DNA from: a virus
DNA length: 64,000 nt
Direction: 5' to 3' (one strand)
Virus record (IMG/VR): IMGVR_UViG_3300042348_000780
Positions within the stretch are counted from its first letter, which is position 1. The number at the start of each line of letters is the position of its first letter. A model generated the notes under the pieces. It had not been told where the DNA came from. It did no database searches and saw only the letters and a list, made by a program, of their open reading frames with translations. Positions 1 to 6,235 of the stretch are shown one piece after another. Position numbers and translations under genes: made by a program.

Positions 1-69
1 CACAAGTTATCCACAATGGTAATACTATCAACATGGCTAGGGCTTCGCCCTTATAGCCATGTTGATAGT
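1..69. repeat. Repeat unit 1 (truncated by window edge)
   Basis: TTATCCACA 7-15; ACTATCAACATGGCTA-GGGC-TTC-GCCC-TTA-TAGCCATGTTGATAGT 24-69. Confidence 0.95.
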
Positions 70-79
70 TGCAAAGACA

Positions 80-101
80 CCAGACCCCTTTCGGGGTCTG
101 G
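80..101 (-). terminator. Terminator-like hairpin after ORF 123-650
   Basis: Minus strand CCAGACCCC-GAAA-GGGGTCTGG then TGTCTTT (weak U-tract). Confidence 0.6.
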
Positions 102-122
102 CATCCTGCCCAATTTCATTCT

Positions 123-650
123 TTACTGTGATCGTCCACGGACGACGATCCAGATAAGAGCCTGCATTGCCGCAGGTTCCCAACCGTGCATCCGCGCAAC
201 TTCGCGCACGGATTCCGCGAGTTGCAGATATTGCGTCTTATTGACAATCTTCGATGGATGCTGAGCCGCTTTCAGCATCCACGTATCAATCACTACGGCT
301 TCCCCGTCGCCTGAAATTGCACGGGCGAAGTTATTCGTCTTCAAGCCGCGCAATGCACGGAAGCCTTCAGACCTTGCGGCTTCCGCGTTACGAATGGATG
401 TCCGAAGACACTTGACACTTTCGCCTGACACGAACGAACGTGCCAGTTGTACATTGCGGCTCCACGTCACACGTGGAGAGAATGCGGAAATCACACTTGC
501 GGCCTGCTCATATGAGAGCGAATTGTCGAGAAGTTTGAGTTTCGCGCATTCGGTATGAGCCAACTCATACCAACGACAGGCTTCCAGTTGCTGTCCGAGG
601 TTCGATGAAGATGCGAGATTGTGAAAGAGAGTTGTGGGGGAAGTAGCCAT
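123..650 (-). CDS. Phage protein, possibly HhH-GPD DNA glycosylase-like fold
   Basis: 175 aa with WY..AH, SAFSP..W..N, G.KT..F, VVIDTWM and MQALIW motifs; own promoter directly upstream. Confidence 0.6.
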   Translation of the reverse strand: MATSPTTLFHNLASSSNLGQQLEACRWYELAHTECAKLKLLDNSLSYEQAASVISAFSPRVTWSRNVQLARSFVSGESVKCLRTSIRNAEAARSEGFRALRGLKTNNFARAISGDGEAVVIDTWMLKAAQHPSKIVNKTQYLQLAESVREVARMHGWEPAAMQALIWIVVRGRSQ

Positions 651-656
651 ACGGGG

Positions 657-685
657 AATATATCAGAATCCGAAGCGGCTTGCAA
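657..685 (-). promoter_or_regulatory. sigma70-type promoter, leaderless
   Basis: TTGCAA-17-TATATT-6 nt-ATG(650). Confidence 0.75.
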
Positions 686-706
686 GTTGGTCGAAAGAAT
701 GGAGAG

Positions 707-780
707 TTATCCACAAGTTATCCACAATGGTAATACTATCAACATTTATAGGGCTTCGCCCTTATATAAATGTTGATAGT
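707..780. repeat. Repeat unit 2
   Basis: TTATCCACA at 707 and 718; ACTATCAACATTTATA-GGGC-TTC-GCCC-TTA-TATAAATGTTGATAGT 735-780. Confidence 0.95.
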
Positions 781-791
781 TACGCAAAGGT

Positions 792-817
792 CCACCCACG
801 GCTCCTACCGTGGGTGG
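792..817 (-). terminator. Terminator-like hairpin
   Basis: CCACCCACGG/CCGTGGGTGG 10-bp stem just past the stop at 843. Confidence 0.55.
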
Positions 818-842
818 TGTTTGGTTTTTGTTTGGAGTTTGT

Positions 843-1190
843 TTACCTACGTCGCGGTTCGATCATGGTGAGTCGGCACTCACCGTTCATATCTTTCCAG
901 CATCGGAAACGATGCGGGAAGCGATTGTTGAGCATTGGATCGGAGATCCACAATCGGCATCCGTCCCATTGAGGATTGGAACGGAACATACGCAGAGCCA
1001 ATACTGCGGGACTCTCATTCGAGAGAACTTTCAGCGTATTCACACATTCACCGAACGGTGAGCCGTCAAGAATGGCGATGGTATATTCGTCATTCTTGCC
1101 GTTCATATTGAGCGAGATACCGAACATACGAGAGAAGAGGTTGCGGACGGAGGATGCCTTGCGGCCCGATTGAATGGTGGAAGTGACCAT
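843..1190 (-). CDS. Hypothetical cassette protein (115 aa; start re-called to ATG 1190)
   Basis: The track start at 1229 lies upstream of the promoter; ATG 1190 is 6 nt after the -10 box. Confidence 0.7.
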   Translation of the reverse strand: MVTSTIQSGRKASSVRNLFSRMFGISLNMNGKNDEYTIAILDGSPFGECVNTLKVLSNESPAVLALRMFRSNPQWDGCRLWISDPMLNNRFPHRFRCWKDMNGECRLTMIEPRRR

Positions 1191-1196
1191 GCAGAC

Positions 1197-1224
1197 AGTA
1201 TAGCGTCCGTCCCGAAGAATGCAA
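1197..1224 (-). promoter_or_regulatory. sigma70-type promoter, leaderless
   Basis: TTGCAT-16-TATACT-6 nt-ATG(1190). Confidence 0.7.
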
Positions 1225-1239
1225 GCCACTTTCCAAGAT

Positions 1240-1309
1240 TCTGGATAGATTGTGGATAAGTCAAACTATCAACATTGGGGGCCAAAGGCCCAATACCAAT
1301 GTTGATAGT
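1240..1309. repeat. Repeat unit 3 (DnaA boxes in reverse orientation)
   Basis: TCTGGATAG 1240 and TGTGGATAA 1251; ACTATCAACATTGG-GGGCC-AAA-GGCCC-AATA-CCAATGTTGATAGT 1265-1309. Confidence 0.9.
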
Positions 1310-1321
1310 ATTTCAAAGAAT

Positions 1322-1350
1322 AACCAGAGAGTCACATAGACTCTCTGGTT
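1322..1350 (-). terminator. Terminator-like hairpin
   Basis: AACCAGAGAGTC/GACTCTCTGGTT 12-bp stem followed by ATTCTTT on the minus strand. Confidence 0.65.
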
Positions 1351-1372
1351 GATTGTCACGTTGTGAGAGACT

Positions 1373-1573
1373 TCAGAAGTCTCTCAACCGTCTTGCGAGT
1401 TCCTTCTCCTCCTCTGTCATTCGGGAGAAGTCCAATACCCAATGACCCCTCGAATTGAGGCAAGTTGGTAACAACAACTTGAACTCTGCCGCCAATTCGG
1501 GACGGCTCGTCTTGCGACAATTTCGGTCGGTAACTGCGGACGGGGGAAGTACGTTGTTGGAGTTGGTATCCAT
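1373..1573 (-). CDS. Hypothetical cassette protein (66 aa, MDTNSNNV...; start re-called)
   Basis: ATG 1573 lies 6 nt after TATAGT; the longer track ORF would run through the repeat element. Confidence 0.65.
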   Translation of the reverse strand: MDTNSNNVLPPSAVTDRNCRKTSRPELAAEFKLLLPTCLNSRGHWVLDFSRMTEEEKELARRLRDF

Positions 1574-1579
1574 GCCGTA

Positions 1580-1607
1580 ACTATAGCGACTGTCCTGAAG
1601 AGTGCAA
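1580..1607 (-). promoter_or_regulatory. sigma70-type promoter, leaderless
   Basis: TTGCAC-16-TATAGT-6 nt-ATG(1573). Confidence 0.7.
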
Positions 1608-1632
1608 GAGGGTAGGGAGAATCTAGCGAGAT

Positions 1633-1703
1633 TGTGGGTACATTGTGGATATCTCAAACTATCAACAACGGTTAACGGGCAAAGCCCTACCGTTGTTGAT
1701 AGT
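1633..1703. repeat. Repeat unit 4 (DnaA-like boxes reversed, bulge on left arm)
   Basis: TGTGGGTAC 1633, TGTGGATAT 1644; ACTATCAACAACGGT-TAAC-GGGC-AAA-GCCC-T-ACCGTTGTTGATAGT 1658-1703. Confidence 0.9.
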
Positions 1704-1716
1704 ATTTGAAAGCTTT

Positions 1717-1732
1717 GGGAGCCGAAGCTCCC
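1717..1732 (-). terminator. Terminator-like cUUCGg hairpin
   Basis: Minus strand GGGAGC-TTCG-GCTCCC just after the stop at 1743. Confidence 0.6.
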
Positions 1733-1742
1733 TATGTTTGTG

Positions 1743-2024
1743 TTATTTACATATTTGTTTCGCGTGAATAAACAACTCGTCCAATTGATTCTGCAACTGG
1801 TCGAGTTGTGGCCAACGAAGTGCAACTCTGTCGCGGGAAATTTCCCGACGAACCATAGGGTATACTTTCACCAATGCAATAAACAAACTTCGCTTACATT
1901 CAAGCGAAGTTTCGGCAAAGATGTCCTTCATGAGAATGATGCAAACTCTTGACATATCAAGAGTTTGTTCGGGATCCATTGACTCAATACGTGACGAGAG
2001 AGATGAGAGAGTGGAGTTGTGCAT
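1743..2024 (-). CDS. Hypothetical cassette protein (93 aa)
   Basis: ORF fills the interval between promoter and terminator. Confidence 0.75.
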   Translation of the reverse strand: MHNSTLSSLSSRIESMDPEQTLDMSRVCIILMKDIFAETSLECKRSLFIALVKVYPMVRREISRDRVALRWPQLDQLQNQLDELFIHAKQICK

Positions 2025-2030
2025 GATATG

Positions 2031-2059
2031 ACTCTACCCGATTGTCTTCAGACTGTCAA
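2031..2059 (-). promoter_or_regulatory. sigma70-type promoter, leaderless
   Basis: TTGACA-17-TAGAGT-6 nt-ATG(2024). Confidence 0.75.
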
Positions 2060-2070
2060 GCGACCTAGAG

Positions 2071-2143
2071 TTATCCACAGGGTATCCACAAGGCCAAACT
2101 ATCAACAGGGCTAGGGCTTCGCCCTTATAGCCCTGTTGATAGT
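2071..2143. repeat. Repeat unit 5
   Basis: TTATCCACA 2071, GTATCCACA 2082; ACTATCAACAGGGCTA-GGGC-TTC-GCCC-TTA-TAGCCCTGTTGATAGT 2098-2143. Confidence 0.95.
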
Positions 2144-2176
2144 ATTTGAAAGCCCCGTCGCATGGGGCAGAATTGT

Positions 2177-2500
2177 TTATTTTTCTCCAAGACACATCTT
2201 GTGATATTGTACAAGATATTGTTTGAATGATTCAGAGAATGATTCTGAATTGTTAATCGGGATACACAATCCCAATTGTTTGATAATTCTGTCCATTCGT
2301 GAGATATAGGGTTCAATTTCCTTGAATCCACCATTGTCGATACAATGTTTGGACGTATTGACACAATCAATCAATGCGGCTAACAGATCAATTGTGCGAT
2401 CGTGAGATGATTCTAACAACGAAACTGAATCCAAAGCAGATGACCACATTGTTTGGTTGGCCGTTCGAATTTCGGTGATGCGAGTCTGGAAGTCAATCAT
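2177..2500 (-). CDS. Hypothetical cassette protein (107 aa)
   Basis: ORF with GAAAGG SD-like motif; hairpin 2152-2168 after the stop. Confidence 0.75.
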   Translation of the reverse strand: MIDFQTRITEIRTANQTMWSSALDSVSLLESSHDRTIDLLAALIDCVNTSKHCIDNGGFKEIEPYISRMDRIIKQLGLCIPINNSESFSESFKQYLVQYHKMCLGEK

Positions 2501-2553
2501 TGTTAGCCTTTCGTTAGGGTATCTGTCTCGGTGCGAAGATGCCCGATTCTAGT

Positions 2554-2582
2554 ACCCTACCCGATTCTCTTGAGGGTGTCAA
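2554..2582 (-). promoter_or_regulatory. sigma70-type promoter
   Basis: TTGACA-17-TAGGGT, same layout at 3096-3124 and 3470-3498. Confidence 0.6.
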
Positions 2583-2593
2583 GCGACCTAGAG

Positions 2594-2666
2594 TTATCCA
2601 CAGGATATCCACAAGGCCAAACTATCAACATTGCTAGGCCAAAGGCCGTATAGCAATGTTGATAGT
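2594..2666. repeat. Repeat unit 6
   Basis: TTATCCACA 2594, ATATCCACA 2605; ACTATCAACATTGCTA-GGCC-AAA-GGCC-GTA-TAGCAATGTTGATAGT 2621-2666. Confidence 0.95.
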
Positions 2667-2702
2667 ATTTGAAAGCCCCGTCGCATGGGGCAAGGTTCTT
2701 GC

Positions 2703-3023
2703 TTATTCTTCGAGGTCGAAATAATCCATACCAGAGTCAGTATGTCGAACCTTATACCATTCAAGGCCCTTCGAATATTGACGAATTTGATCTACCGTCA
2801 ATTCGACACCGCGCAATTCGCGCGGAATATCCAACTCCAATGTAGCAACGGCATTCGCGTAGGCGGCAACGTGCAGAGGCACGTTGCCGATAATATTGCG
2901 ACTACGCGCATCCTCTTTCGAGATATGCTCGACTACCGTTCCCGTGATTCCGTATCTTTCCCGAAGATACGTAACAAGGGCGGCATGTCGAGTCACAATG
3001 AGAGTTTCGATGTAGTAGGACAT
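2703..3023 (-). CDS. Csx16 (Cas_VVA1548)-like protein, candidate cOA ring nuclease / anti-CRISPR
   Basis: VTRH near the N-terminus, IIGNVPLHVAA and LDIPRELRGVELT match the Csx16 pattern (vTRH...vIGtLPvhlAA...ldlp.elRG.EL). Confidence 0.75.
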   Translation of the reverse strand: MSYYIETLIVTRHAALVTYLRERYGITGTVVEHISKEDARSRNIIGNVPLHVAAYANAVATLELDIPRELRGVELTVDQIRQYSKGLEWYKVRHTDSGMDYFDLEE

Positions 3024-3095
3024 TTGTTAGCCTTCCGTTAGGATCTGTCGTGGGCCGAATTGCCCGTGCATCGGACGAAGTTGCCCGATTCTAGT

Positions 3096-3124
3096 ACCCT
3101 ACCCGATTGTCTTCAGACTGTCAA
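3096..3124 (-). promoter_or_regulatory. sigma70-type promoter
   Basis: TTGACA-17-TAGGGT. Confidence 0.6.
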
Positions 3125-3135
3125 GCGACCTAGAG

Positions 3136-3207
3136 TTATCCACAAGGTATCCACAAGGCCAAACTATCAACATTGGGGGCCAAAGGCCCAATACCAATGT
3201 TGATAGT
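3136..3207. repeat. Repeat unit 7
   Basis: TTATCCACA 3136, GTATCCACA 3147; palindrome 3163-3207 identical to that of unit 3. Confidence 0.95.
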
Positions 3208-3220
3208 ATTTGAAAGGCTT

Positions 3221-3238
3221 GGGAGGCCGAAGCCTCCC
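3221..3238 (-). terminator. Terminator-like cUUCGg hairpin
   Basis: Minus strand GGGAGGC-TTCG-GCCTCCC. Confidence 0.6.
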
Positions 3239-3245
3239 GTGAAGT

Positions 3246-3395
3246 TTAAGTGTATCCATCCATCGATCTAGTGATGCTCTCAATATTAGCAGCATCTTCA
3301 TCGATTTGTCTGGCAATTTCCTCTTCACAATCTTCATATGGGTCGAAGTCATCGCCCCACTCGTCGTCCGTCTCTGAACGTTTCTTCGGTTTCAT
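3246..3395 (-). CDS. Small acidic protein (49 aa), not in ORF track
   Basis: Manual translation MKPKKRSETDDEWGDDFDPYEDCEEEIARQIDEDAANIESITRSMDGYT*; GAAAGG upstream; stop falls just before the terminator hairpin. Confidence 0.7.
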   Translation of the reverse strand: MKPKKRSETDDEWGDDFDPYEDCEEEIARQIDEDAANIESITRSMDGYT

Positions 3396-3469
3396 GGTAG
3401 CCTAGCCTTTCGTTCGGTCTGAAGTGGGCCGAATTGCCCTTGCATCGGACGGAGTTACCCGATTCTAGT

Positions 3470-3498
3470 ACCCTACCCGATTCTATTGAGAGTGTCAA
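3470..3498 (-). promoter_or_regulatory. sigma70-type promoter
   Basis: TTGACA-17-TAGGGT. Confidence 0.6.
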
Positions 3499-3509
3499 GC
3501 GACCTAGAG

Positions 3510-3544
3510 TTATCCACAGGATATCCACATCGTACTATCAACAT
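3510..3544. repeat. Repeat unit 8 (terminal half-site)
   Basis: TTATCCACA 3510, ATATCCACA 3521, ACTATCAACAT 3534-3544 with no complementary arm. Confidence 0.9.
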
Positions 3545-3793
3545 CCAGCCTCGTTATATGGTCACGTTTCTAAACCACGTCACAGGACAGTGAAATTGAC
3601 AAAAGGGAACCCATCCCCTTTAGCCGCTTGCGAGTCCCAAAACCCTAACACACCCAAAATTCCTATTAAATTATAATGGGACTCCCAGACCTCAAAAATT
3701 TTTTCTGGGAAAAAAATGCTCTATTAGCGTTTTCTAAATATATTAAATGAAGCATTTAGCCTGATCTCCTACATTATAGAAAGGAAAATAAAT

Positions 3794-4159
3794 ATGACAC
3801 TCAAAGAATACTATAAGAATAGACTACAAGAAGCTGTTTTGTCGAATAAATTACGCCGAACTTTAGGCGCAGTCGGCCTAGCGTCTAGCCTTTTCGCTGG
3901 AGGAGGCGCAGCGGTCGGTGTGGCAGCTCCGTATATAAGAGATGCAAAAACTACTTTTCATAAAGCAATAGGAAATCCTGTTGGTGGAGAAGAAGTTAGT
4001 CGGGCAAGGGCAGAAGCCGCTAATAAGGTGGGTCTTGTTGGATCAACCGTTCCCGCTGGTAAAAGAGCCTTATATGGAGCAGGACTAGGTGTTGGACTTC
4101 TTGGTGCTGGTATGGCTGCTGAAGTCTTAAAAGGAAGAATAAAGGGAAGAAGAAAATAA
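3794..4159 (+). CDS. Putative internal virion protein with two Gly-rich hydrophobic segments
   Basis: MTLKEYYKNRLQE N-terminus; AGGA SD. Confidence 0.6.
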   Translation: MTLKEYYKNRLQEAVLSNKLRRTLGAVGLASSLFAGGGAAVGVAAPYIRDAKTTFHKAIGNPVGGEEVSRARAEAANKVGLVGSTVPAGKRALYGAGLGVGLLGAGMAAEVLKGRIKGRRK

Positions 4160-4168
4160 AAAGGCTCT

Positions 4169-4654
4169 ATGAAATCATTTAAGCATTATTTAATTGAAGT
4201 ATTAACTTTTAAAAATAATTCATCCTGGGCATATCATCCAGATACAGGTTTTGCTCATGAAAAAAGTGGAGCAAGAGAACATTTTGATGTTTTTCCTCAT
4301 CTAGAATTTATGGATCGAGGAAAGGAAGCAGACGAAAAACGTAGAATACCTCAACGTAAAAGAATTCCAGCACAATCTTGGGGAAGAGTAGATCACGATA
4401 ATCGTATTGTACATATAATTACTCAGAATGGTCAAATGGTTCCATCAAGTAGACTTACTGGAAAAAGACTTGAAGATGATGTATTTAATAGAATTACCGC
4501 AGTAAAACATATTCGACAACATTTTCCTGACTATAGAATTCATGTTAGTGGTCATCAACAACCTGGATATGGCGACAAAGTAACCACGGATATCACAACT
4601 CATAATTATGATGAACATCTAAAACATTTAACTGGTCTTTTGGCTGATAAATAA
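4169..4654 (+). CDS. Putative capsid-targeted internal protein
   Basis: N-terminus MKSFKHYLIE. Confidence 0.65.
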   Translation: MKSFKHYLIEVLTFKNNSSWAYHPDTGFAHEKSGAREHFDVFPHLEFMDRGKEADEKRRIPQRKRIPAQSWGRVDHDNRIVHIITQNGQMVPSSRLTGKRLEDDVFNRITAVKHIRQHFPDYRIHVSGHQQPGYGDKVTTDITTHNYDEHLKHLTGLLADK

Positions 4655-4659
4655 AATAC

Positions 4660-5214
4660 ATGAAATCCTTTAAGCAATATCTCTCAGAAGCAGGAAAGCT
4701 CTATAGGTTTGATGATAAAATACTCATCCCGAAAGCCCAGACTTATGCATTTTCTCCAGATGGTACAGGTTCTGGTAATGTAGAAAATAATGTTGGATGG
4801 GTTCCCCCAAAAGACTGGAAAGAAAAAAAAGGATTGTTTGCTGGTCAATATCACCATGTTCTTTCGTATGCTGTTCCTAGATCTACCAGGTGGCTCGTAA
4901 CGGGTAAGAGAACAAAAGAAGAGAAACCAACTATACATTTCACAGAAGATGACAGAGAGGCAATAAACGCCCATAGACCAACAATCTCTCAATATAATGT
5001 AAGACAAGGGTTTGAAAGATCTCAGGCTAATAGCGGTGAATATTTTGCTCAGGCTGATAAGGCTCCTTCTCCCATCTCACAAAAAACAATAGAAGATCCA
5101 ATAGAACATATTAAAAAACATTTTAATGTTAACTTTGTTCCAGATCTTGATCGTCATAAAAGAGATTTAGATGCACGGGGAATCAATTATAATGCAGAAG
5201 GAGATTTTAATTGA
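4660..5214 (+). CDS. Putative capsid-targeted internal protein
   Basis: N-terminus MKSFKQYLSE; GATAAATA late-promoter-like motif 6 nt before ATG. Confidence 0.65.
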   Translation: MKSFKQYLSEAGKLYRFDDKILIPKAQTYAFSPDGTGSGNVENNVGWVPPKDWKEKKGLFAGQYHHVLSYAVPRSTRWLVTGKRTKEEKPTIHFTEDDREAINAHRPTISQYNVRQGFERSQANSGEYFAQADKAPSPISQKTIEDPIEHIKKHFNVNFVPDLDRHKRDLDARGINYNAEGDFN

Positions 5215-5678
5215 AATCCTTTAAGCAATATCTCTCAGAAGCCAGACCAACAGGCCAAAAAAGATATCAAAGAGACATTTCTAAATTAGAAACTCGACTT
5301 GATAAAATGTATGCTGCTGGTGGTTCTCAGAAAAAAATAGACAGGGCCGAGATGAGACTTGCCAGGAAAACGAATGAAGGTGAATTTGACATTGATGATC
5401 AAAGACTTCCAAAACTAAAATCTACAGAATATCACCTTGAAGTCGAGGAACATCCAATGGCCATGTCTCTTGATGAATTAATGAGAGAAAAAGCCAAGAA
5501 AATTCATACTCATAATTATACACATGGCATGGTGGGTGCAGAGATTCGTTCAGGAATAACTGACTTAACATACAATCCTGGTCTGAAGGCAGATGTTACT
5601 GATGAGCAACTTGGACAAGAGGCTCATAGAATGTTCATGGCTCATGAGAATATGAAATCAAGAATTAAAAAGAAATAA
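5211..5678 (+). CDS. Putative capsid-targeted internal protein
   Basis: TTG start, MKSFKQYLSE; 31 nt identical to the start of the preceding gene. Confidence 0.65.
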   Translation: MKSFKQYLSEARPTGQKRYQRDISKLETRLDKMYAAGGSQKKIDRAEMRLARKTNEGEFDIDDQRLPKLKSTEYHLEVEEHPMAMSLDELMREKAKKIHTHNYTHGMVGAEIRSGITDLTYNPGLKADVTDEQLGQEAHRMFMAHENMKSRIKKK

Positions 5679-5698
5679 ATAATAATAAAGGATATTAT

Positions 5699-6235
5699 AT
5701 GGATTGCAATAAATCAAAAATGAAAAAGAAGAAGTACATGAAAGAAAATGAAGAGTTTATGGCTTTAAAAGATTATTATAAAAATATTTTATCAGAAGCC
5801 ACAAGAGCAATAGCTCAAAGAACCGACTTGATTGATTTTAATCCAAGAGATGTTCATGGTAATAAAAGAAATCCAATAGATTATCCATTTAAAAAAACAG
5901 GAGAAAGTAGAGGAATTTTAGGTTTTGTACAAGGTAAGCCAGCTCCACGATTCGTAAATCCAAAAGATACTGCAAGATCTAGACCTCCTAGAACTAAACC
6001 ATCAGTAGATAAAAAGGGAAGAGATAAAAGACTTAAATATAAAATTGCAACTCTTAGACCTAGAATGAATTATGATCCAGAAACAGGTCTTAATTTTGCT
6101 GCTGATGCACTAGAGCGTAGAGGTTTTGAAGTTCCACCAATAGATCCTAAAAATTTGCCGCCTTTTCATGAAATTGAACAAGCATACGATATACAACATT
6201 TCAATCGCGCAAGGGGAAATAAATACTTTAAATAA
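5699..6235 (+). CDS. Basic hypothetical protein, possible internal protein
   Basis: Internal MALKDYYKNILSE resembles the N-terminus of 3794-4159. Confidence 0.55.
   Translation: MDCNKSKMKKKKYMKENEEFMALKDYYKNILSEATRAIAQRTDLIDFNPRDVHGNKRNPIDYPFKKTGESRGILGFVQGKPAPRFVNPKDTARSRPPRTKPSVDKKGRDKRLKYKIATLRPRMNYDPETGLNFAADALERRGFEVPPIDPKNLPPFHEIEQAYDIQHFNRARGNKYFK

Follow-up and report, generated by a model that had tools for sequence, protein, structure and literature searches.

The early region of an uncultured freshwater T4-like myovirus, of which we analysed a stretch of 64,000 nucleotides (the window; IMG/VR record IMGVR_UViG_3300042348_000780), carries seven copies of a hairpin-capable palindrome with invariant outer arms, each lying between a terminator hairpin and an early promoter. 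We propose that this palindrome is the third conserved module, after terminator and promoter, of cassettes of the promoter-early stem-loop (PeSL) type. The reading that we favour, with a probability of roughly 40%, is that it would act at the level of the DNA, as a recognition site able to form a hairpin or cruciform that bounds the cassettes and is their preferred crossover point. PeSL-type cassettes as such are known; what is new is a family of palindromes armed with ACTATCA, with a freely varying, perfectly paired stem, a variable length and a centre that flip-flops.

Anatomy and position of the palindromes

The full palindromes are 45-46 nt long, and a lone arm lies at position 3534. They are listed without strand:

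P1, 24-69: inner stem TGGCTA, cap GGGC-TTC-GCCC, bulge TTA on the plus strand
P2, 735-780: inner stem TTTATA; centre inverted in strains L029 and L040
P3, 1265-1309: inner stem TTGG, cap GGGCC-AAA-GGCCC, bulge AATA; same sequence as P7
P4, 1658-1703: inner stem ACGGT, bulge on the opposite arm; bulge side switched in strain L022, loop unchanged
P5, 2098-2143: inner stem GGGCTA
P6, 2621-2666: inner stem TTGCTA, cap GGCC-AAA-GGCC, bulge GTA
P7, 3163-3207: inner stem TTGG, sequence of P3, both flanks different from those of P3
Lone promoter-side arm, 3534-3543: head of the array, divergent intergenic region, without a partner arm

An earlier note on this DNA had described invariant outer arms, inner stems that vary and are nevertheless always complemented, and GC caps closed by a 3-nt loop. 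All three observations were borne out: the arms ACTATCAACA/TGTTGATAGT are exact in 7/7 copies, pairing of the inner stems is perfect from P1 to P7, and the caps read GGGC-TTC-GCCC, GGCC-AAA-GGCC, GGGCC-AAA-GGCCC or GGGC-AAA-GCCC. The unpaired bases TTA, AATA and GTA lie on the 3' side of the plus strand, with the exception, also correctly described, of P4, in which they are found on the 5' side (TAAC, with a single T opposite). Similarly, GCGAAGC is present on the minus strand of the TTC copies, as had been pointed out; it forms a DNA mini-hairpin of exceptional stability (PMC13037366). When folded as single-stranded DNA, either strand gave -16.5 to -19.8 kcal/mol (z-scores of -7.6 to -12), and the same hairpins folded as RNA gave -23.7 to -32.6 kcal/mol. 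The 9-mer ACTATCAAC occurs in 15 copies in the window against 0.65 expected, all inside 24-3542.

Each unit is read from the minus strand in the order stop codon, GC-rich hairpin with a T-rich tail, spacer of 8-16 nt, palindrome, two boxes, promoter and gene. The position given for the element in the earlier note was therefore right on both sides: in the direction of minus-strand transcription a separate GC-rich terminator hairpin stands 8-16 nt before each palindrome, and a sigma70-like promoter on the minus strand 38-50 nt past each palindrome of the window. The promoter consensus downstream of every palindrome is TTGACA/TTGCAn, a 16-17 nt spacer and TAnnnT. Across the family described below, the distance from arm to -35 box was 25, 35, 38, 40, 45, 49, 50, 56-58 or 60 nt, and this unphased range rules out a fixed helical phasing between palindrome and promoter. 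The palindromes are not terminators themselves, since a test for intrinsic terminators called 0/7 of them terminator-like and found no T-run after any, while it did call the separate upstream hairpins.

Several known sites were considered for the arm and rejected. It contains the WATCAA of a site for integration host factor (IHF), but by eye the TTR part of WATCAANNNNTTR is absent in every copy. It also contains TTGATA, but no -10 box follows 16-18 nt on in the cassettes of the window; TTGATA seems to act as a -35 box at one site only, in the relative G019. A resemblance to tetO (CTATCA/TGATAG) was set aside, as the spacing of the half-sites is presumably wrong.

Distribution of the element in related phages

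A metagenome scan and identical-protein look-ups gave the strains L022, L029, L031, L040, L060 and L068-L076, which are near-identical or ~88-93% identical to the window. In L068 the array begins at the lone arm and spans nine full palindromes, with a 59-nt variant and a cluster of isolated arms further on. The array thus runs on past the left edge of the window (position 1), by two more full copies and the 59-nt variant. Five more distant lineages, reached through DUF7178 homologues, a gp32 search and one motif scan, carry the same element in the same cassette position:

L281/L282: 31-33 nt, without bulge
L284: 33-34 nt, loops of 7-8 nt
L285: 46 nt, 16-nt loops
L289: 33-36 nt
G007 (= L290): 26-27 nt, 10-bp arms, 6-7 nt spacer

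Over the family the element therefore measures 26-59 nt, with stems of 10-20 bp. The gap between the conserved 7-mers is 12-45 bp, and within one genome it goes from 31-34 bp (nine array copies) to 45 bp (the variant). In a further relative, G019, the arm is present as single sites only, upstream of promoters, which suggests that the arm sequence is recognised independently of pairing.

No such palindromes were found with the more distant DUF7178 homologues L277, L279, L286 and L287. The arm 9-mer was not enriched in 23/24 related gp32-bearing records, a result of little weight as most of these records are fragments. When viral contigs were scanned with both arms together, all that came up were isolated inverted repeats unrelated to the element, whose spacer was in many cases 15 nt long and not palindromic; a scan with a 19-mer of arm plus flank gave one chance match, inside a gene. 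Most of the 49 metagenome matches were unrelated hairpins sharing a 10-mer, with L022, L029, L031, L040 and L060 as the only relatives among them.

Two other arrangements of the arm were observed. Nine unrelated viral contigs (L004, L005, L007-L009, L011, L013, L014 and L016) share the site ACTATCAACATACAATCGACTAGCATGTTGATAGT, which has the same 10-bp arms around a non-palindromic 15-nt spacer and adjoins a GGGCCCC hairpin; this could be coincidence or a common binding specificity. The cluster of three isolated arms consists of GTTGATAGT and, ~110 nt later, ACTATCAAC-N11-ACTATCAAC. It was found in L068 (15391-15619) and L285 (2371-2451), in both lineages in a convergent intergenic region adjoining the 3' end of a small WYL_2 (PF10902) gene.

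Pairing is kept while the stem changes

Covariation was analysed in 26 distinct palindrome copies over six lineages, using a MAFFT alignment (A1) for the test of the outer ten pairs. Stem columns 1-7 (ACTATCA/TGATAGT) are invariant in all 26. Columns 8-13 show 3-4 pair types each, with Watson-Crick pairing in 138/138 cells; shuffles gave a mean of 61.6 and a maximum of 86 such cells, and 0/2000 reached 138. The outer ten pairs are 100% paired and contain 26 double-change cells as compared to 5.3 in shuffles (0/500), and in controls with slid alignments pairing dropped to 22-68%. Covariation in a larger alignment had been named beforehand as the decisive test of the earlier claim of compensatory stem changes, and it turned out to be strong, far above shuffles. 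The GC cap recurs with a compensatory change of its own (GGGC/GCCC versus GGCC/GGCC).

Pairing in the palindromes is almost exclusively of the Watson-Crick type. In predicted folds, only 1/427 palindrome pairs is a G.T pair, against 42/446 in the adjacent terminator regions, a count that includes some spurious helices from energy-minimised folds. The near-absence of G.T pairs suggests that both strands are equally able to fold, as is expected of DNA and not of RNA. However, compensatory change alone is not proof of selection for structure, because template switching at inverted repeats, which homogenises the arms and inverts the spacers (PMC8604942), can yield it by mutation.

The claim of a conserved bulge did not hold for the family. 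In the lineage of the window 3-4 unpaired nt lie beside the 4-5 bp GC cap in 9/9 copies, on the 5' side in the direction of transcription in eight of the nine, but the five related lineages have plain loops of 3-16 nt. As the bulge is absent there and its side differs between strains and between copies within the window lineage, it does not define the family. A choice of strand directed by the bulge, in the manner of attC (PMC2727003), seems unlikely from these comparisons.

Inversions and breakpoints at the palindromes

Comparison of strains revealed two natural changes of the palindrome centre. In L029 and L040 the 14-nt centre of P2 (GGGC-TTC-GCCC-TTA) is exactly inverted, with the 35 nt on each side identical but for one base. 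In L022 the GTT on the 3' side of P4 is gone and its complement AAC is found on the 5' side, with the loop unchanged. Such changes are produced by polymerase template switching or by recombination between inverted arms (PMC8604942, PMC7202029), and their occurrence at P2 and P4 indicates that intrastrand pairing or arm-arm exchange takes place at the palindromes.

The palindromes also lie at the breakpoints of cassette exchange. When modules were compared, one palindrome was seen with four different flank combinations, two different palindromes were seen between near-identical flanks, and the terminator side of P4 was seen in two versions. In L029 and L040 a single gene, with the junction at P4, takes the place of four window cassettes (1713-3450), and hybrid units are found in L022 and L075. 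Since palindromes have recombined with different flanks on either side, crossovers have occurred at both arms.

Some contigs show further irregularities at these sites. Three independent contigs fold back exactly at a palindrome (L072 at 2635-2720, L281 at 117-315 and L282 at its 3' end), so that what follows the palindrome is the reverse complement of what precedes it. Palindromes may have misled the assembly here, or the contigs could represent real snap-back molecules. In L075 (1887-2302), a second, 94%-identical version of the g5 promoter and gene follows P3 in place of g2, so that either this strain has duplicated the cassette or the assembly of L075 is chimeric.

The cassettes of the window and their phage

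The window encodes the T4-type proteins gp20 (portal), gp23 (major capsid protein), gp17 (terminase) and gp32, together with baseplate wedge proteins of the gp6, gp7 and gp53 types and with neck and sheath proteins. These T4-type proteins have only ~30% identity to any annotated phage, and megablast of window positions 1-6000 against annotated phages gave no match. Domain scans (Pfam and PHROG) took in 40 open reading frames (ORFs) of the window, namely 37/46 of those of at least 150 amino acids (aa) and some smaller ones, and the precomputed Pfam table of the 20-kb L068 locus was inspected for recombinase and transposase domains. The early region is hyperplastic and tiled by PeSL-type regulatory cassettes. 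The genes within 1-3400 are small and on the minus strand, and the seven cassette ORFs encode 49-175 aa, mostly without a known family. The features of the cassettes are as follows:

123-3395, minus strand: seven single-gene cassettes, g1-g7
123-650, minus strand: g1, DUF7178
843-1190, 1373-1573, 1743-2024, 2177-2500 and 3246-3395, minus strand: g2, g3, g4, g5 and g7
2703-3023, minus strand: g6, Cas_VVA1548-like
80-101, minus strand: terminator hairpin of the gene preceding P1 (gene left of the window edge)
792-817, 1322-1350, 1717-1732, 2152-2168, 2676-2692 and 3221-3238, minus strand: equivalent terminator hairpins
657-685, minus strand: sigma70-like promoter of g1, TTGCAA-17-TATATT, ATG 6 nt past the -10 box
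1197-1224, 1580-1607, 2031-2059, 2554-2582, 3096-3124 and 3470-3498, minus strand: equivalent promoters
704-728, minus strand: pair of DnaA-box-like 9-mers with an 11-bp period, between palindrome and -35 box
5-15, 1239-1262, 1632-1655, 2068-2091, 2591-2614, 3133-3156 and 3507-3529: further DnaA-box-like pairs

The boxes have the sequence TTATCCACA and close variants (TGTGGATAW in minus-strand form), and 13/16 copies of TATCCACA in the window fall in box pairs between palindrome and -35 box. The pairs at 1239-1262 and 1632-1655 are inverted relative to those of the other cassettes. Box pairs are present in L281, L284 and L285, whereas the lineages of G007 and G019 lack them. More than 119 viral contigs, none with the palindrome, came up in a scan for the paired motif, so tandem boxes are common in unrelated phages.

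In four promoters (650-662, 1190-1202, 1573-1585 and 2024-2036) the -10 box ends 6 nt before the ATG, without a Shine-Dalgarno sequence. The mRNAs of these cassettes therefore look leaderless. The g5-g7 cassettes have a conserved leader of 53-74 nt in common instead, and the 6-nt spacing was also seen in L281, L284 and L285. The G007 cassettes (L290 6300-8584) have CTATAT(T) at the place of the -35 box, 17 nt before TAnAAT, and no DnaA boxes; these may be promoters of another class, dependent on a phage factor. The product of g6 is a stand-alone protein of 106 aa with a match to Cas_VVA1548 (Csx16-like; Pfam, E 8e-16), encoded in an early cassette of its own with no cas genes nearby.

Comparison with known systems

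The closest known system is that of the PeSL cassettes of the T4-type phages RB49/phi1, T4/PST and KVP40/nt-1 (Arbiol 2010, PMC2839356; Comeau 2014, PMC4122927). As in those phages, we found a hyperplastic region of small ORFs in a T4-type phage, each ORF flanked by a stem-loop terminator just upstream of a strong sigma70-like early promoter, and close relatives that differ by whole cassettes with breakpoints in repeated control DNA. Unlike in PeSL cassettes, a palindrome with invariant arms stands between terminator and promoter, separate from the terminator stem-loop and conserved in six lineages, its centre flip-flops, and paired DnaA-box-like 9-mers follow it in some lineages. The PeSL papers describe no palindrome, cruciform or such conserved site (PMC2839356, PMC4122927).

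In its way of working the element resembles the hairpin promoters of phage N4, without being one of them. Both are small, GC-topped hairpins with a 3-nt loop in early phage DNA, and in both some stem bases are conserved and others need only to pair. Extrusion in N4 is driven by supercoiling (PMC4496689), and we propose the same for the palindrome. However, N4 stems are 5-7 bp long with their centre at position -11 relative to the start, and they depend on a giant polymerase that is injected and on single-stranded DNA-binding protein, whereas the present stems measure 10-20 bp and a sigma70-type promoter follows them at a distance of 25-60 nt. A giant virion RNA polymerase of the N4 type was not found among the scanned ORFs of the window, the largest of which encode tail proteins.

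The earlier note had suggested recognition of the kind known from integron attC sites and from the HUH substrates of repetitive extragenic palindromes (REPs). The defining features of these systems, and likewise of the N4 type, were looked for and are missing. Like attC, the palindrome stands at cassette boundaries, and in both the outer core is conserved, the interior varies but is paired, some bases are unpaired and the top varies; attC is recognised as folded DNA (PMC2727003, PMC5027507), as is proposed here. However, the arms TATCAAC ... GTTGATA do not fit the purine and pyrimidine positions of RYYYAAC ... GTTRRRY, the stems are perfect and those of attC imperfect, and the unpaired bases lack conservation among relatives and can lie on either strand. 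Moreover, the cassettes have their own promoters and terminators, whereas integron cassettes are promoterless and read from a common Pc. No integron integrase (IntI) or other recombinase was found in the Pfam and PHROG scans of the 40 window ORFs or in the Pfam table of L068. With REPs and bacterial interspersed mosaic elements (BIMEs) the element has in common that these are intergenic palindromes of ~35-45 nt just past terminators, whose stem has a conserved head at its base and varies in a compensatory way above it. In contrast, REPs are dispersed over bacterial chromosomes and have a GTAG-type head, mismatches and a gene for a REP-associated tyrosine transposase (RAYT), whereas 15/15 arm copies in the window are confined to the early array (24-3543). 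An HUH Y1 transposase (RAYT) domain was found neither among the scanned window ORFs nor in the L068 table. Template switching, or quasipalindrome correction (PMC8604942, PMC7202029), predicts just the two kinds of difference found between strains, namely arms that stay perfectly complementary and spacers that are inverted. As a mutational process it leaves unexplained the invariant basal 7 bp, the fixed cassette position and the persistence across lineages.

Discussion

In the mechanism that we propose, the basal 7-10 bp (ACTATCA(ACA)/(TGT)TGATAGT) would be a sequence-specific recognition site, and the remaining stem would only keep the arms pairable within a strand, so that a hairpin or cruciform could emerge from the duplex. 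The GC mini-hairpin, closed by a tight loop of 3 nt, would be the nucleus from which extrusion starts; the AT-rich terminator tail on one flank would assist it, as would negative supercoiling generated by the strong early promoter on the other flank. The extruded arms would present the same short duplex beside a four-way junction however long the top is. A junction- or hairpin-binding protein may act there, either a T4-type endonuclease VII or some early protein; an endonuclease VII Pfam domain was found on two distantly related contigs, and its presence in the phage of the window is assumed. The element would in this way mark cassette boundaries and serve as the crossover point for gain, loss and swapping of cassettes, and it may insulate neighbouring transcription units. 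There is precedent in the early promoters of N4, where physiological supercoiling suffices for the extrusion of small hairpins with loops of this kind, and a protein reads them by contacting conserved stem bases while the remaining stem bases need only pair (PMC4496689). Additionally, a stable tri-loop is known to help extrusion of a hairpin (PMC4496689, PMC13037366). A far-reaching version, which we regard as speculative and improbable, is that the supercoil-gated cruciform would be an integrase-free 'attC' of T4-like phages. Extrusion would then be driven by transcription from the adjacent early promoter, and a junction protein (endonuclease VII or some early protein) would read the ACTATCA duplex at the junction and cut or exchange strands, so that cassettes would be excised, captured and reshuffled at a defined site and not by diffuse homologous recombination.

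Several points weigh against this mechanism. With a centre rich in GC, ordinary cruciform extrusion faces a higher kinetic barrier; the form in G007 (10-bp arms with a 6-7 bp spacer) resembles an ordinary operator, and the single half-sites of G019 cannot form hairpins. Perfect arms and inverted centres are also produced by template switching free of selection (PMC8604942), and plain homologous recombination within the 13-19 nt that are identical around the arms could also have given the breakpoints. The T4-type replication system is recombination-proficient and accounts for PeSL exchange (PMC2839356). Finally, extrusion in vivo, a protein that binds or cuts and a role as insulator are steps that we infer.

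An alternative is a double-stranded operator, in which the arms would be half-sites for a phage or host DNA-binding protein by which the early promoters as a set are controlled or insulated, with no functional extrusion and with symmetry and flips as by-products of template switching. In favour of an operator, nothing but the arms is invariant, a promoter always follows the site, arms without a partner precede promoters at the array head and in G019, G007 has the 10-6/7-10 layout of a classic inverted repeat, and both the homogenising of arms and the inversion of spacers are known from template switching (PMC8604942). We nevertheless find this explanation rather doubtful. A rigid dimer on B-DNA, or a stereospecific activator, is disfavoured because the gap between the 7-mers of 12-45 bp (31-34 versus 45 bp in one genome) could not be spanned by the former and because the -35 box lies at unphased distances of 25-60 nt. 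Such a variable geometry fits better if what is recognised is the basal duplex of the stem, since this does not change with the structure above it. Mutation alone is also not expected to keep stems of 13-20 bp perfect in 26 diverged copies, as palindromes are prone to deletion, nor does an operator account for the recurrence of the GC cap and tight loop with a compensatory change of its own. The same conservation bears on the idea that the palindrome is a functionless relic of fold-back (snap-back) replication or of an inverted duplication upstream of a promoter, and was passed on passively when the cassettes multiplied. The three contigs that fold back exactly at a palindrome (L072, L281 and L282) and the occurrence of the promoter-side arm alone in G019 and at the array head are in its favour. 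However, the position of the element within the cassette is unchanged in six lineages, its inner sequence is fully turned over with pairing still perfect, and its basal 7 bp are invariant on both arms, which makes a relic highly improbable.

A role as RNA was considered as well, in which a read-through transcript would fold into a 20-bp bulged hairpin and serve as backup terminator, 3'-end stabiliser or RNase III site of the kind that separates early genes in T7. Folded as RNA, the hairpins are highly stable, read-through is plausible in the window lineage with its short terminator T-tracts (TTTCAAAT), and a 20-bp stem with an asymmetric bulge resembles the substrates of RNase III. However, the stems lack G.U-compatible pairs, which neighbouring terminators do have, and no T-run follows the palindromes, 0/7 of which are terminator-like. 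The 10-bp stem of G007 is too short for RNase III, and inversion of the centre alters both the loop and the side of the bulge on the RNA. The preceding terminators are strong in related lineages, with long T-tracts in L281, L289 and G007, and the palindrome then precedes the -35 box; since good terminators stand before it and the -35 box comes after it, the palindrome is predicted to lie in untranscribed DNA. The lone arm at 3534 likewise lies in divergent, untranscribed DNA. A search of Rfam gave no family at gathering score and only two matches at chance level (E 0.18 and 0.95). An RNA element thus appears quite unlikely, and the comparison of sequences favours a DNA-level element. Of the DNA-level role advanced in the earlier note, the general part was supported by Watson-Crick-only stems, the position past terminators, the lone arm and the inversion of the centre, while strand-selective recognition of the bulge in the attC manner was not.

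It has further to be considered whether the palindrome could be a dedicated site for site-specific recombination, similar to attC or REP, at which a recombinase or transposase encoded elsewhere in the phage or by the host would read the folded strand and move the cassettes. The conserved outer core, the variable paired interior, the unpaired bases and the exchanges that break at the palindrome would agree with this, as would the movement of palindromes as modules relative to both flanks. We judge it very unlikely, as no integrase, HUH or transposase domain was seen in the scanned ORFs or the L068 table, every cassette is equipped with a promoter and a terminator, RYYYAAC/GTTRRRY is not matched by the core, and the bulge is absent in related lineages and flips in that of the window. 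Moreover, PeSL exchange is already accounted for by the recombination machinery of the T4 type (PMC2839356).

The shuffling of accessory genes in T4-type phages is generally explained by PeSL cassettes, whose discoverers did not decide whether it is targeted or follows incidentally from homologous recombination (PMC2839356). What the present analysis adds is a discrete, sequence-conserved and hairpin-capable site at the cassette boundary, with natural flip-flop variants and with breakpoints at its arms. If its folded form is functional, this would be the second phage system after N4 to use extruded DNA hairpins as signals for proteins. If it is an ordinary operator, it would point to a regulator of the whole early regulon in a widespread clade of freshwater phages.

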